Virus record (IMG/VR): IMGVR_UViG_3300028585_000052
Location: 1-33,411 of that record
Reading direction: 5' to 3' (one strand)
DNA: 33,411 nt
Source: a virus
Lineage: Duplodnaviria > Caudoviricetes
Numbering within the stretch: position 1 is the first letter of the stretch; every line of letters starts with the position of its first letter. Of this stretch, positions 21,052 to 31,745 are shown piece after piece. Position numbers and translations under genes: made by a program. The notes under the pieces were generated by a model that was not told the origin of the DNA, did not search any database, and worked only from the letters and a program-made list of their open reading frames with translations.

Positions 21052-21534
21052 ATGCATAGCGCAAATTATGTGCCGGGTATCTCCGGCTGGAAGCTCCACA
21101 AGAACGGAAGCCTTGAATTCAAATCGTCCGGCGACCCGTGCCTGTCTAGTGTAGGAAAAGAGGAGCCGCCAAAGCCGTTTATCGTCGTCGACGGCGTGAC
21201 GTACATGCGTCAGGAATCGAGCAGCGAATCCAGCACTGAGAAGCCGAAGTTGACCCCGCAGTGGACCGTTAAGCTCGAGCTGCTCAACGGCCAGTATGTG
21301 GCTGCCGGTATTGGGCTGGGTATTGCCTCGCAGTTTCTGGTGAGCGCGGATCGCTTCGCAGTCAACGATCGAGATGCTGAGCAAATCCTCGAAGAGCTCG
21401 AAGGCCGCATTTCCCAGACGGAGCTTGTCAGTGCGATGGCTGCGCAGGCTGAGCAAATCAAGCCCATTGCCGAAACCGTTCGCGAAGTCCTCCGCGAGGA
21501 GCTCCAGCCTGGCGGGATCCTGCACCGCAAGTAA
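21052..21534 (+). CDS. Inserted gene: concatemer of J tail-tip motifs (DUF1983-like) plus tape-measure-like C-terminus
   Basis: Four segments match this phage's J in reverse order; followed by its own terminator; interrupts the usual terminator-tube adjacency. Confidence 0.85.
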   Translation: MHSANYVPGISGWKLHKNGSLEFKSSGDPCLSSVGKEEPPKPFIVVDGVTYMRQESSSESSTEKPKLTPQWTVKLELLNGQYVAAGIGLGIASQFLVSADRFAVNDRDAEQILEELEGRISQTELVSAMAAQAEQIKPIAETVREVLREELQPGGILHRK

Positions 21535-23080: not shown

Positions 23081-23322
23081 AGATGGCCATCCCGGGCGAG
23101 CCTGAGAATGACCCGCTGACCGCCTACCTGCTCAACCTGTACCGGAACGTGTCTCGCGGCCGCCGGTACATCGCCGGCATGGCCGGGGCGTTCCCGCTGC
23201 CGCTCTCGGCGCGGGAGATATCTGACTGGCTGGAATCGCATCCGTCACCGCTGCCGCGCGATGAGATAGACGACGTGATTTTTGCGCTGGATACGGTGTG
23301 CTTGGCCGGTGCCGACGAGTAA
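23005..23322 (+). CDS. gpT-analogue extension of the tail chaperone, made by frameshift
   Basis: -1 frame continuous with ORF 23083-23322; SRGRRY...PLPLS..EI...I.ALD motif. Confidence 0.82.
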   Translation, partial: ALARFEWEQEWGGESEKRRAVYSRLKMAIPGEPENDPLTAYLLNLYRNVSRGRRYIAGMAGAFPLPLSAREISDWLESHPSPLPRDEIDDVIFALDTVCLAGADE

Positions 23323-23357
23323 CCAACATGATGCGGCTGCGCCGCCTGGAGACACCA

Positions 23358-23513
23358 ATGAAAGATCAAAAAACGCGGGGGAGCGACTTCCCCGGCCATC
23401 AAGACGCAGGGAAGTTTCAAGACTGGCTTACTCAGAAGGTTTCCGAGACGACTCTGGCAAAAGACCTGCTATCAAAGATTCAAGCGGCAGCCGATGAGCA
23501 GACCGATCCTTAA
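23358..23513 (+). CDS. Microprotein (51 aa) carrying a J helical-motif mimic
   Basis: GGAG SD 6 nt before ATG; DAGKFQDWLTQKVSETTLAKDLLSKIQ aligns with J DVSAYLAAMAGKVGRTELGQDIVDEID. Confidence 0.65.
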   Translation: MKDQKTRGSDFPGHQDAGKFQDWLTQKVSETTLAKDLLSKIQAAADEQTDP

Positions 23514-23676
23514 TGATCGACTTGTCATCAGGAAGCGATTCAAGAAGTGCTTTTGCTGCATCTGCAACCTTGATTCGCCCCGGAACATCCAGACTTGCGA
23601 TAGCCGTTCCGATTACTTGCAGCGCAGCACAGACGCCTAGCTCGAAGGGTGTCGCCACCCGTTGTTCTTCACTCAT
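23428..23676 (-). CDS. Antisense moron protein (82 aa), function unknown; candidate lysogen-expressed defence factor
   Basis: GGAGG SD before ATG 23676; opposite to late operon; structured upstream region; 3' end overlaps the 23358 gene by 86 bp. Confidence 0.7.
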   Translation of the reverse strand: MSEEQRVATPFELGVCAALQVIGTAIASLDVPGRIKVADAAKALLESLPDDKSIIKDRSAHRLPLESLIAGLLPESSRKPSE

Positions 23677-23697
23677 TCTGACCTCCAGGTCATAAAC

Positions 23698-23749
23698 GCG
23701 CCGAGATTGGCGCAATCCCAGTCCTTGGGCTTGCAGGCAAAGGACTGGG
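23698..23749 (-). promoter_or_regulatory. Two hairpins in the presumed 5' leader of the antisense moron
   Basis: GCGCC-gagatt-GGCGC (23698-23713) and CCCAGTCCTT...AAGGACTGGG (23717-23749). Confidence 0.55.
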
Positions 23750-23824
23750 GTTATCCGTTGCGTGAAGGCAAGAGGCTACTATCGGTGAACGGAATTGCGT
23801 TACTGGTGATTCGTACAGCCCGCT

Positions 23825-23853
23825 TTGGCGCTTCCTGCGGATGGTGGTAGATT
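23825..23853 (+). promoter_or_regulatory. Moron promoter for immunity gene
   Basis: TTGGCG, 17-bp spacer, TAGATT with extended -10 TG. Confidence 0.55.
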
Positions 23854-23879
23854 GCTGCCATTACTCAGGGAGGTTTGGC

Positions 23880-24221
23880 ATGCAAAACGATACCGGTCCA
23901 CTGGGAGTGCTAGTCCTGTTGTTCGTGGGATTTTTGGTCTACTTCATGCCAAGTCTCAACGCGCGTCACCGTCGGCACCCAAATTTCAATTCGATCCTTC
24001 TGTTGAACCTGTTCCTTGGCTGGACGCTAATTGGCTGGGTGGTCTCCATCGTGTGGTCGGCATCCTCCATTCCGCCGATTGAACCAATCAGGGTTCGCCC
24101 TGAGGCTGAGGCTTCTGAGGACAAGTATCAAAAGATAGAGCGGCTCAGCGGGCTAAAAGAGAAAGGCCTGCTCACTGAAACTGAATACGAGGCTGAAAAA
24201 GCCAAAATCTTGCAGAGCTGA
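23880..24221 (+). CDS. Superinfection immunity protein (T4 Imm-like) with C-terminal SHOCT domain
   Basis: YFMPS..A..R.H.N...I.LLNLFLGWTLIGWV...VW motif; ERL..LKEKGLLTE.EYE..K.KIL; GGAGG SD; own promoter and terminator. Confidence 0.88.
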   Translation: MQNDTGPLGVLVLLFVGFLVYFMPSLNARHRRHPNFNSILLLNLFLGWTLIGWVVSIVWSASSIPPIEPIRVRPEAEASEDKYQKIERLSGLKEKGLLTETEYEAEKAKILQS

Positions 24222-24236
24222 ATGCCTGCACAAATG

Positions 24237-24259
24237 ACCCGCTTCGGCGGGTTTTTTTA
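24237..24259 (+). terminator. Intrinsic terminator
   Basis: ACCCGC-ttcg-GCGGGTTTTTTT. Confidence 0.85.
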
Positions 24260-28395: not shown

Positions 28396-28794
28396 ATGCG
28401 CTACCGAGACTGGACAACCCGTCTGAACGAAACGATCAAGGCCGCCCAAGAGCGGCCTTTTTCATGGGGCGAATTTGACTGCTGCCTGTTCGCAGCCGAC
28501 TGCACGGCTTCGGTGTGTGGTGTCGATCCGGCGGATAACTATCGCGGCAAGTACACGACGGAGACCGGTGCGAAGCGGCAGTTGAAGAAGCAGCACGGCA
28601 GCCTTGAGGCGGCGTGGGATACACACTTTGCCCGGGTGCCGCTGCCGTTCATCCAGCGCGGTGACGTCGTGCTGTACGACGCGCCCGGCGGACGAAGCAT
28701 GGCCGTGTTTTGGGCGGGAGATTACTGGGCGGCGACCGATGACGGTGCTGCTCGAGTTGAGTGCGAGCCACTGGCCGCGTGGAGAATTGAATGA
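28396..28794 (+). CDS. NlpC/P60-like tail assembly protein (gpK analogue)
   Basis: PFSWGEFDCCLFAAD...G.DP and QRGDVV motifs; start set at ATG 28396. Confidence 0.8.
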   Translation: MRYRDWTTRLNETIKAAQERPFSWGEFDCCLFAADCTASVCGVDPADNYRGKYTTETGAKRQLKKQHGSLEAAWDTHFARVPLPFIQRGDVVLYDAPGGRSMAVFWAGDYWAATDDGAARVECEPLAAWRIE

Positions 28795-31745
28795 GCGGCG
28801 GCGTTAAAAAACTTGCATCGGTCGTCATTGGCGCGGTGGTTGGTTTTGCCCAGGGCGGACCATGGGGTGCGGTTGCAGGCGCAGCGCTTGCCTTTTACGC
28901 CGCCGAGCAGCAGGAAAAGCTCAACACGAAGTCGCCTCTGCGTGACAACGAGCCGTCCGCCCAGACCGTACGCTCTTCGAAGGCGCCGGTGCGCTTCATC
29001 CTTGGGCGCGTTTCCACCGGCGGCGTACTGGTATGGGCGCAGGAGCAGACCGGCGCTCAGGGTGAGGGTGAATGGCTCCACCTGGTGTACGTGCTGTGCG
29101 AGGGGGCGATCGATGCCCTCGAAAACATCTACCTCGGCGAGGAAGAGATCGGCGCATTCGGACCGCTGGCCAGCTACGAGCTGGTCGTCAATCCGACTCA
29201 AGTGAACGCGTTCCTGAAGGCCAACTGCCCCGACTGGAAAGACTCGCAGATCGGACGCGGCTTGTCCTATGTGCGGGTTTCCCTCCGTTACAGCGCAGAG
29301 AAGTTTCCATCGGGCATCCCTGACACGCGTTTTGTGGTTCGCGGGCGGAATGATATTTACGATCCGCGCACCGGGGCGGCGGGTTATAGCGCGAACACTG
29401 CGTTACACCTGCTCTGGTTCCTGCGCAACCGCTGCAACGTGCCGGACGATGAAATCGTCTTCGAGACCTTCGCCAGCGCTGCCAACGTCTGCGACGAAGG
29501 CGTAACCAATGCCGACGGCTCGACGAGCCAGCGGTATCGCACCGGCTGTGTAATCGGTGCGGACGAGCAGCGCACCGGCGTTCTCCAGAAGCTGGAAGCA
29601 GCGTCGGGCGGCCATCTGATCCGTGTTGGCGGCCGCTGGATGTTCCAGGCTGGCGCCTATTACGGCCCGTACGACTTCGAGATCACCGAGGACATGGTGA
29701 TCGGCACAGTCACCGGCAGCACTGAGCCAACCAATGACACCGCAATCAACACCGTGCGCGGCACGTTCATCGATCCGGAACAGTCCTGGACCGAGACGGA
29801 TTACCCGGAAGTCAGCGTAGCCGAATGGATCGTTGAGGACGGAGGTGAGGCGGCGGAGACGCTGACCTATTCCTATGTCTCCGATCCCTATCAGGCTCAG
29901 CGCCTGGCGAACATGGAACTGCGCCGGCGCCGCGCTGGTGGCGCTATCAGCATCCCGATGAACTTCGCCGGATACAACTGCAGGCCTGGCCGCGTGGTTC
30001 GCGTGAACCTGCCATCGCTGAACATCCTTGGCGAGTTCATCGTCTCCGACTGGTCGATGGGCGATCGCGAGGGCTGCACGGTTCAGGTCAAGCAGTACGA
30101 GCCTGCGATCTTCGACGACGCTGTCGGCCAGCCGTACAACCCGATCGGCTTCATCAATCTGCCTTCCGGCGGACTGGGCACGCCCACGAATCTCGCGTGG
30201 ACGCAGGACACCACGGCCGAGGTGACGCAGGGCGTTCTATCGTGGACGCCTCCTGCAGGAGTGGTGAAGGAGTACATCGTCATCGTCCGGCAGGGCGCGA
30301 CCGCGATTCAGTCGCACAACGTGCCTGCTACATCGACGGAATGCGCCATCAATGGCTTGCCGTCCGGCAACTACACCATGAGCGTGGCGGCCGCCGGCCC
30401 CATGGCGCGTTCAGGTGAGGTGACGATCACCGTTAGCATCAACGGCCCGCCCATCCCGGAAAGCTGCGTCGTGCAGTCTTCGATCGACAACATCGTGCTG
30501 ATTCCGAGCAACCCGCAGAACGGGCTGAACGGCGGCACGTACGAGTACTTCTTCAGTACTTCGCCGAACGCAACCTCGGACGACGCCGAGTATCTCGGTC
30601 AGGGGCTGTCTTTCACGCACACGGGGCTGGGCTTCTGGACGAACTATTACTATTTCGTTCGCTCATCCAATGCGTACGGGAAAAGCTCTTTCCTGTTCGT
30701 TCCGGCCCAGACCTCAAACGATGTTTCGGCATACCTGGCCGCCATGGCGGGAAAAGTTGGACGCACGGAACTGGGGCAGGACATTGTCGATGAGATCGAC
30801 AAAATCCCTGGCCTTCAGGATCAGATCGATGATCTGTCAAACCCGATGCTTTACGAGAAGACAGATGCATATCTGACTGGAGCTGTCGTTTATCAGGGGG
30901 ATCGTCTGTATCGGGCCAAGCAGGACGTTCCCGCCGAGCCAAGCGGAGCCAACGCGCCACCGAACACAACCTACTGGGAAGACATTGGCCAGATTTTGCA
31001 GGAGGCAAACGCGCTGGCCGCGCAGGTATCCGAGAACACGCTGAATATAGACCAGCAGGGGGACCAACTTAGCGCACAGGCATCAAAGCTGGATGGCGTG
31101 TATGTCCAAGTGAACCCGGCGCTGGCTGGTGACACGACGGGCTTTGCGGGATCAGATCAGGTCTACATCGGTGTCTGGTCAGAGCAGTCGGCGCGGCTTG
31201 AGGACGGCGTTGCCACTGCCCGTCGTGTTGACACAGTGCAGGCGGAAGTCAACAAAAACAGCGCCACCGTCCAAACGGTGAGCCAGTCCGTCGCGACTCT
31301 GGATGGCAAGGTATCTACAAGCTGGTCGGTGAAGATGCAGGTGGCTGCGAACGGTCAGTACGTAGTGGCAGGGGTTGGCCTCGGGATTGAAAATGGACCC
31401 GCAGGCCTTCAGAGCCAGTTCCTTGTCAGTGCCGACCGATTCGCGATAGTAAATTCCATCGCAGGCGGAGCCATAACTATTCCATTTGCGGTGGAAGGCG
31501 GGCAGGTATTCGTCGACAGTCTGCTGGTTAAAGACGGCTCCATCGTTAATGCGAAAATAGGCGCATTCATCCAATCCGATAACTATGTATCGGGCGTCCA
31601 AGGCTGGCGGCTGGATAAACTTGGAAACCTTGAGTTCAATGGGCCGGCGCCTGGCGGAGGGCGATTAACAATGACTAACCGGGCGATCAAGGTGTTTGAC
31701 CAAAACGGAGTTAAACGGGTGCAGCTTGGAGATCTCGACGCATGA
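28791..31745 (+). CDS. Host specificity / central tail tip protein J
   Basis: 984 aa; tail hub N-terminus, FnIII-like repeats, CBM-like insert, DUF1983-like C-terminus (AGVGLGIEN...SQFLVSADRFA; IQSDNYV.G..GW.LDK.G.LEFN). Confidence 0.93.
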   Translation: MSGGVKKLASVVIGAVVGFAQGGPWGAVAGAALAFYAAEQQEKLNTKSPLRDNEPSAQTVRSSKAPVRFILGRVSTGGVLVWAQEQTGAQGEGEWLHLVYVLCEGAIDALENIYLGEEEIGAFGPLASYELVVNPTQVNAFLKANCPDWKDSQIGRGLSYVRVSLRYSAEKFPSGIPDTRFVVRGRNDIYDPRTGAAGYSANTALHLLWFLRNRCNVPDDEIVFETFASAANVCDEGVTNADGSTSQRYRTGCVIGADEQRTGVLQKLEAASGGHLIRVGGRWMFQAGAYYGPYDFEITEDMVIGTVTGSTEPTNDTAINTVRGTFIDPEQSWTETDYPEVSVAEWIVEDGGEAAETLTYSYVSDPYQAQRLANMELRRRRAGGAISIPMNFAGYNCRPGRVVRVNLPSLNILGEFIVSDWSMGDREGCTVQVKQYEPAIFDDAVGQPYNPIGFINLPSGGLGTPTNLAWTQDTTAEVTQGVLSWTPPAGVVKEYIVIVRQGATAIQSHNVPATSTECAINGLPSGNYTMSVAAAGPMARSGEVTITVSINGPPIPESCVVQSSIDNIVLIPSNPQNGLNGGTYEYFFSTSPNATSDDAEYLGQGLSFTHTGLGFWTNYYYFVRSSNAYGKSSFLFVPAQTSNDVSAYLAAMAGKVGRTELGQDIVDEIDKIPGLQDQIDDLSNPMLYEKTDAYLTGAVVYQGDRLYRAKQDVPAEPSGANAPPNTTYWEDIGQILQEANALAAQVSENTLNIDQQGDQLSAQASKLDGVYVQVNPALAGDTTGFAGSDQVYIGVWSEQSARLEDGVATARRVDTVQAEVNKNSATVQTVSQSVATLDGKVSTSWSVKMQVAANGQYVVAGVGLGIENGPAGLQSQFLVSADRFAIVNSIAGGAITIPFAVEGGQVFVDSLLVKDGSIVNAKIGAFIQSDNYVSGVQGWRLDKLGNLEFNGPAPGGGRLTMTNRAIKVFDQNGVKRVQLGDLDA

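Follow-up and report, generated by a model that had tools for sequence, protein, structure and literature searches.

What could a phage gain from a small antisense gene and a peptide gene that converge and overlap at their 3' ends in its tail operon? We addressed this question in a window of 33,411 nucleotides (the whole stretch of DNA analyzed), a Pseudomonas-type siphophage record with its genes ordered from terminase to tail and including those for capsid, neck, tail tube, two tail assembly chaperones, tape measure protein, and a 984-aa J protein. The original prediction had described an 82-aa minus-strand gene with a strong Shine-Dalgarno sequence and a structured leader, overlapping a 51-aa plus-strand gene by 86 nucleotides, and each of these elements was present. 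The 3' ends of the two open reading frames converge, the ribosome site of the plus gene is GGAG at 23348-23351, and that of the minus gene is GGAGG at 23686-23682. The features of this two-gene cassette and the related features of the window were as follows.

23358..23513, plus strand: gene for the 51-aa J-mimic peptide, a candidate decoy or counter-defense gene, directly 3' of the tail assembly chaperone genes
23403..23480, plus strand: J-like core of the peptide (residues 16 to 41), equivalent of the first helix of the J alpha-helical shaft
23333..23351, plus strand: short GC hairpin, then the ribosome site of the peptide gene, present in all 11 loci displayed
23428..23676, minus strand: antisense moron encoding an 82-aa protein (phrog_17867) of three predicted helices with a hydrophobic first helix, a candidate inhibitor
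23677..23749, minus strand: conserved structured 5' leader of the 82-aa gene
23717-23749 (long), 23698-23713, and 23680-23693 (over the GGAGG site), minus strand: hairpins of the leader
23773..23782, minus strand: conserved block that may contain the -10 element of the moron promoter, as judged by eye from the leader alignment
23378..23393, minus strand: terminator-like hairpin 3' of the minus gene and within the peptide gene, weak (5 found versus 3.6 expected in shuffles)
30720..30797, plus strand: helix of the window's own J (J residues 644 to 669; J gene, 28791-31745), at the start of the alpha-helical shaft
21052..21534, plus strand: separate 160-aa mini-protein of J C-terminal segments, with a second copy of the shaft helix at its end

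The candidate -10 block was not detected by a scan for consensus promoters. The cassette lies after the second chaperone gene, which ends at 23322, and before a superinfection-immunity moron (23841-24221, plus strand) that diverges from the 82-aa gene, encodes an Imm_superinfect and SHOCT membrane protein, and is followed by a strong terminator (24236-24253). This neighbor is likely a second defense gene at the cassette site.

Conservation indicates that both reading frames are real genes. The antisense frame was kept in all 11 loci first collected. The peptide family comprises 19 database proteins, and among the 18 distinct peptide sequences of the fetched loci, which range from 48 to 67 aa and have unrelated N-termini, every one kept the GGAG and an in-frame ATG. 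Values of pN/pS were pooled pairwise over 15 sequences, the pairs not being independent of one another; this set was formed without L004 and L008, which are near copies of the window, and without L065, in which the moron stop is four codons earlier. Over peptide codons 11 to 23, which lie outside the moron, pN/pS was 0.27 in the peptide frame and 2.40 and 1.26 in the other same-strand frames, and the mirror antisense frame gave 0.35, as expected. Within the overlap, pN/pS was 0.72 for the peptide versus 1.01 for the moron over codons 24 to 32, 1.27 versus 0.53 over codons 33 to 41, and 1.81 versus 0.32 over codons 42 to 50. The overlap is divided, with residues 16 to 32 constrained in the peptide frame and residues 33 to 41 shared with the minus gene. 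Because the constraint is split between the two frames in this way, the working core of the peptide is probably close to residues 11 to 33, and since residues 33 to 41 evolve under the minus frame, the overlap accounts for part of the resemblance to J. An inverted repeat, found by eye just behind the moron stop, spans the FP and GK codons and may be a further reason why these are conserved. Searches of Pfam, PADLOC, and NCBIfam returned no match to either gene beyond weak chance rows, a sequence search of solved structures found no relative, and tblastn of the peptide against named phages returned 13 Xanthomonas rows at chance level only.

The 82-aa protein matched phrog_17867 (E of 2e-16) and has 9 close protein relatives and 13 cluster representatives, one of them a 940-aa repeat-like match; an identical protein is encoded in a Pseudomonas rustica genome (L004). 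Its residues 8 to 45 gave a pN/pS of 0.40. The structure model (pLDDT of 81.5) places helices at residues 10 to 27, 31 to 47, and 62 to 72, and the residues G14, A18, G23, P49, L68, and G71 are invariant over 24 sequences. The first helix is hydrophobic, with a best 19-residue hydropathy of 1.76 in the window and of 1.1 to 2.0 across the family. No match naming a function was returned by the family and fold searches (Pfam, PADLOC, NCBIfam, BFVD, and structures): the fold search of BFVD gave no match at an E of 0.001 or less, the best Z score among 48,161 chains was 7.1, with none at 8 or above, and all ESM Atlas matches were below 0.9. The moron leader had a z score of -3.15, with 1 of 200 shuffles as stable, and was conserved over 15 aligned loci. 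The consensus fold of 12 leaders contained 16 pairs, 3 of which had changes on both sides, and no Rfam match came near a gathering score. The small minus-strand hairpin at 23680-23693 covers the moron ribosome site in most loci, and its stem letters change together in L002 and L007. Hairpins of this kind at the moron ribosome site, with GGA in the loop, presumably recall RsmA/CsrA sites.

The original prediction had also proposed that the core of the peptide copies a helix of J. The alignment was as described, an ungapped match to residues 644 to 669 of the window J with 7 identities in 26 positions, and taken alone this pairwise match was marginal: it was equaled by 7 of 300 shuffles when the window J alone was considered and was reached in 100 of 200 shuffles when the comparison was made with 17 late proteins of the window. 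The likeness became clear at the level of the family. When 8 peptides were scanned against PHROG, phrog_2148 and phrog_10903 were each matched by 4 and phrog_18217 and phrog_31 each by 3 (E of 0.008 to 0.06), and 1 match was to an unrelated family. All four of these PHROG families also match the J of the window, so 4 of the 5 families matched were J or J matching. Ungapped alignment of the peptide family to 18 J-like proteins placed the best window on the helix that immediately follows the second FNIII/Ig domain in 17 of them, the exception being that of L050. A profile built from 25 peptides and run over 401 Pseudomonas genomes (E of 0.01 or less) identified 46 places, made up of 4 cassette copies, 40 long frames of 271 to 2,542 aa, and 2 short frames. 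The long-frame matches that were retrieved as loci and checked were all J (26 of 26) and all at the helix that starts the alpha-helical shaft; one of them, the genome of L091, carries an unpublished flag, and the result stands without it. The two short-frame matches, in G030 and G260, were considered as orphan peptides and rejected, both being spurious frames.

A reverse test was made with a J-only matrix built from 14 J helices taken from phages and genomes that carry the cassette. The window peptide scored 39.2 and its close family 28.6 to 41.9, whereas among 400 random regions no unrelated window scored above 19.1; the J helices had been found using a J itself picked by the peptide, and the reverse test is thus not fully independent. 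The pattern shared by peptide and J is D-A-G-x-x-L-x-[WY]-[IL]-x-x-x-I-S-E-T-x-L. In the peptide, the FP/YP motif corresponds to the strand preceding the helix in J, which is the last strand of FNIII-2, with about 8 residues missing between them. Residue D644 of the window J aligns with D818 of the F2 pyocin fiber, whose shaft-bearing region starts at 819 according to PMC13455828. As described for lambda, the J shaft is a bundle of three helices to which the three FNIII-2 units are anchored and which flips when the receptor is bound (PMC11101478 and PMC10721106). Compared with the shaft or central fiber of lambda gpJ and the F2 pyocin, the core of the peptide corresponds to the first shaft helix after FNIII-2; it differs in being a free product of 48 to 67 aa from which the rest of J is absent. 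These comparisons indicate that the peptide matches the first J shaft helix beyond chance and is derived from J.

Whether the peptide follows the J of its own phage was assessed in 10 cassettes, in which the fit to the own J ranked 12 (the window), 4, 14, 6, 1, 2, 3, 4, 1, and 5 of 14. The idea that the putative decoy tracks its own J was therefore rejected. The peptide looks like a relic of a lambda-type J that is common in Pseudomonas phages with the cassette, in keeping with a decoy for which binding to its partner is enough. Since the peptide does not follow the window's own J, that protein may not be the main target.

The window holds a further J-like gene, at 21052-21534. Its 160-aa product contains C-terminal segments of J whose order is shuffled (Pfam PF09327, E of 7e-14; phrog_18217), and its terminal copy of the shaft helix scored 33.8 on the J-only matrix. 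Relatives of this mini-protein are open frames of 140 to 345 aa, located either between the terminator and the tube or close to lysis genes, and some of them are without the helix. No conserved antisense partner was seen. From its sequence, the mini-protein is a candidate for a second decoy.

The distribution of the cassette argues that its two genes are inherited together. A scan by peptide alignment added 8 new loci among the 12 that it found, and each of the 8 carried a moron homologue about 42% identical. In the 401 genomes, all 4 strong peptide matches adjoined a moron. The moron was present in 8 of these genomes, of which 4 had the close peptide, 2 an early-type partner, 1 a degenerate partner (L064), and 1 a truncated copy (L068), the last being a 52-aa moron remnant at 1479-1656 outside a tail operon and without a J-like partner. 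Over 31 loci, the cassette was found directly behind a tail assembly chaperone gene in 7 and 2.8 kb behind one in 1, after a K-like gene in 11, before an I-like gene in 1, between terminator and tube in 1, between the repressor region (cro) and a replication gene in 5, and, in the Pseudomonas aeruginosa clade, after an I-like or M-like gene in 5; the gene labels outside the window are our own, assigned in part from annotation. The location was within the tail operon in 26 of the 31 loci, and in all 31 the lytic flanking genes, where found, were on the strand opposite the moron. Conservation across these loci bore out the earlier view of an antisense 82-aa gene in a lytic operon forming one of two co-inherited genes. 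The claim that the peptide is expressed late does not extend to the copies in an early operon, so the peptide is not always late. The cassette is, by the comparison of these loci, a mobile two-gene unit of Pseudomonas temperate phages that occupies many sites with a fixed antisense moron. A gene for a small Cys-containing protein was observed directly upstream of the moron and on the same strand in L024 (3373-3666), L025 (2482-2745), and L064 (1821-2081), and is perhaps further cassette cargo.

Conservation of the J motif among homologues, on which the earlier claim had been made to depend, held in part of the family. In the early-region copies, the morons are only about 33% identical, yet the J motif is kept in the register of the window. 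Three partners read in that register from the conserved glycine scored 11.7, 16.3, and 16.4 on the 18-residue J-only matrix, and the partner in L099 scored 16.6 as read from the list of all windows, the anchor pattern having missed L099 and L100. Scores such as these (11.7 to 16.6) were reached by 1 to 5 in 10,000 of 191,647 windows. The moron stop in these copies is five codons earlier, leaving most of the motif beyond the overlap; the motif therefore cannot be a by-product of the overlap. The motif was thus conserved in the close family and the early-region clade and was lacking in the P. aeruginosa clade and in L064. Members of the P. aeruginosa clade (L016, L017, and L101 to L117) have the same moron family with the same leader hairpins and a different partner of 71 to 77 aa (5234-5449 in L016 and 5234-5467 in L017) with a 4-nucleotide overlap. 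This partner is without the J motif, scoring -23 to -26 on the J-only matrix, and the L064 partner scored -1.9. Mimicry of a different J subtype by the partners in L064 and in the P. aeruginosa clade was considered and rejected, as their matches were not above shuffles (142 of 200 and 35 of 200, respectively).

The cassette was then compared with known tail-directed systems. Tab has its own promoter, from which it is expressed on the minus strand of the late operon; it prevents tails from being assembled, and the late-expressed anti-Tab binds it. Its activity has been tied to the tape measure protein in phages of the Mu-like type, an indirect effect not being excluded (PMC10884400). Tab and anti-Tab of Pseudomonas phage JBD26 (83 aa each) are convergent with a 47-nucleotide overlap and have the same geometry and size as the cassette, which also shares with them a small antisense gene in a late operon, a convergent partner on the lytic strand, and a Pseudomonas prophage as its setting. 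Three helices are predicted for both Tab and the moron, in a similar but generic layout. Tab lies between the genes for the small and the large terminase (PMC10884400), a position that the cassette occupied in 0 of 31 loci. The comparison of the moron with Tab gave mixed values, with a profile probability of 0.2% and a global z score of 2.3 that was reached by 8 of 500 shuffles and ranked third among 208 unrelated open reading frames; the peptide family showed no similarity to anti-Tab, and a fold search of a Tab-like model gave no match either. Mimicry of the JBD26 tape measure protein by anti-Tab was considered and was not supported: the best local match among 12 tail proteins was gp58, at 14 of 200 shuffles. 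One 18-residue window of anti-Tab (L199 1378-1629) scored 14.4 on the J-helix matrix, a weak value that may be due to chance.

The original prediction had placed the pair with Tai. Tai/Ati of phi80 resembles the cassette in that a prophage gene lies antisense in a lytic operon next to its counter-defense gene and its target is in the C-terminal region of J; PMC11364771 describes Tai/Ati as a noncontiguous operon, with Tai escape mutations in the C-terminal region of J, and states that binding of Tai to J could not be shown. The phi80 genes (TaiEcA, 204 aa; AtiEcA, 76 aa) are head to head, and the cassette is convergent with a moron of 82 aa. TaiEcA, the one compared of the 57 Tai proteins of PMC11364771, gave at most 2.8 bits against the moron family profile, and AtiEcA gave -1.8 bits against the peptide family and was without the J-helix motif (score of 1.3). 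Membership in Tai was thus not upheld by comparison with phi80 TaiEcA/AtiEcA, which have no sequence link to the cassette and a head-to-head order, and Tab/anti-Tab is closer in layout. By analogy, the cassette may work like a Tab/anti-Tab-like layout with a Tai-like target. The Tha/Ith system of Staphylococcus aureus prophages is similar in being a tail-directed defense with a small antisense inhibitor in a noncontiguous operon, and differs in that Tha aborts infection as an RNase with a HEPN domain (PMC11087260), a domain that the cassette does not have; a word search of PMC11087260 found neither "mimic" nor "decoy". No clear target mimicry was found in the known counter-defense proteins AtiEcA and anti-Tab, and a literature search, with most subscription journals outside its range, found no paper on the cassette or on a J-helix decoy.

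From the evidence described above, we propose, with about an even chance of being right, that the 82-aa protein blocks tail-tip assembly through the J shaft helix and that the overlapping peptide serves as a decoy during the phage's own lytic cycle. The moron would be expressed in the lysogen under its own promoter and leader and would bind the first shaft helix of the nascent J of incoming phages before J trimerizes; with J bound, the tip bundle would not close and tail initiation would be prevented. Upon induction, the peptide would be made from the lytic transcript and would titrate the moron, and convergent lytic transcription would lower the amount of moron message as an additional means of silencing. 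Co-inheritance, a J-derived peptide, the fixed orientation, the geometry shared with Tab, and the escape of Tai by mutations in J support this proposal. Counting against it are the J-less P. aeruginosa partner, L064, the ranks obtained with the own J, the part of the likeness that is borne by the overlap, the inverted repeat over the FP and GK codons, the lack of clear target mimicry in AtiEcA and anti-Tab, and the lack of a family or fold match naming a function for the moron.

Other explanations were weighed against the same evidence. The 82-aa protein could be a J-triggered abortive effector, possibly inserted in the membrane by its first helix, with the peptide an antitoxin that fills the sensing site but does not activate it. 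The family-wide hydrophobicity of the first helix and its invariant small residues G14, A18, and G23 fit such an effector, peptide made from the early-operon copies would neutralize it before J is made, and Tha provides a precedent as a tail-triggered prophage system with an antisense inhibitor (PMC11087260). We nevertheless consider it unlikely, since no nuclease, channel, or toxin family was matched, the model places helix 1 within a small helical protein, and a mimic of the trigger would presumably more simply activate the effector. A slightly smaller likelihood is given to the peptide being an anti-defense decoy against a host or third-party system that recognizes the J helix, with the moron an unrelated passenger. 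The absence of any moron-less peptide from the 401 genomes and from the 8 loci found by peptide alone speaks against an unrelated passenger, as does the single register kept by both genes across about 33% identity, although the peptide is closer to other J subtypes than to its own J, the operon also holds another, unpaired J mimic that bears this helix, and the moron is present without a J-like partner in the P. aeruginosa clade.

The remaining two explanations appear very improbable, and about equally so. If the peptide itself acted on tails by joining the three-helix bundle of J, either to aid assembly or as a dominant-negative competitor, and the moron were a regulator, it would be in keeping that the peptide copies the helix that trimerizes below FNIII-2 (PMC11101478) and that 26 of 31 copies are in the tail operon. 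A gene on the lytic strand would, however, hit the phage's own tails, and the peptide gene is rare (4 strong matches in 401 genomes), changes sites, is also found in an early operon, and fits the window's own J poorly. Alternatively, the plus frame could be an untranslated relic fragment of J that is kept open by the moron's terminator and the antisense coding. Every one of the 18 distinct sequences retains GGAG and an in-frame ATG despite unrelated N-termini, which is hard to reconcile with a relic, as are the pN/pS of 0.27 outside the overlap versus 1.3 to 2.4 in the other two same-strand frames and the dominance of the plus frame over codons 24 to 32 (0.72 versus 1.01); the terminator-like hairpin inside the plus frame, the variable lengths of 48 to 67 aa, and the C-terminal part that follows the minus frame (1.27 and 1.81) are the points in its favor.

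Returning to an inhibitor of tail-tip assembly paired with a decoy, the cassette is a candidate for a new Tab-like defense and counter-defense system with a target-mimic decoy. It is somewhat less probable, and falls short of an even chance, that it represents a widespread class of inhibitor-decoy cassettes in which the counter-defense protein is a trimmed, captured fragment of the inhibitor's target, in this case the J shaft helix locking the tail tip, the moron family swaps decoys with targets, as with the different partner of the P. aeruginosa clade, and the neighbor reveals the target. For Tai and Tab, the binding site on a tail protein and the mode of counter-defense are left open by the respective studies (PMC11364771 and PMC10884400), and the cassette names a specific epitope. 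It points to the first J shaft helix as a soluble epitope of 18 to 26 residues within a directly testable two-gene system of about 250 codons in all. If the proposal is true, target mimicry would be a mechanism of self-immunity in these phages, and the targets of uncharacterized prophage morons would become predictable from their neighbors.
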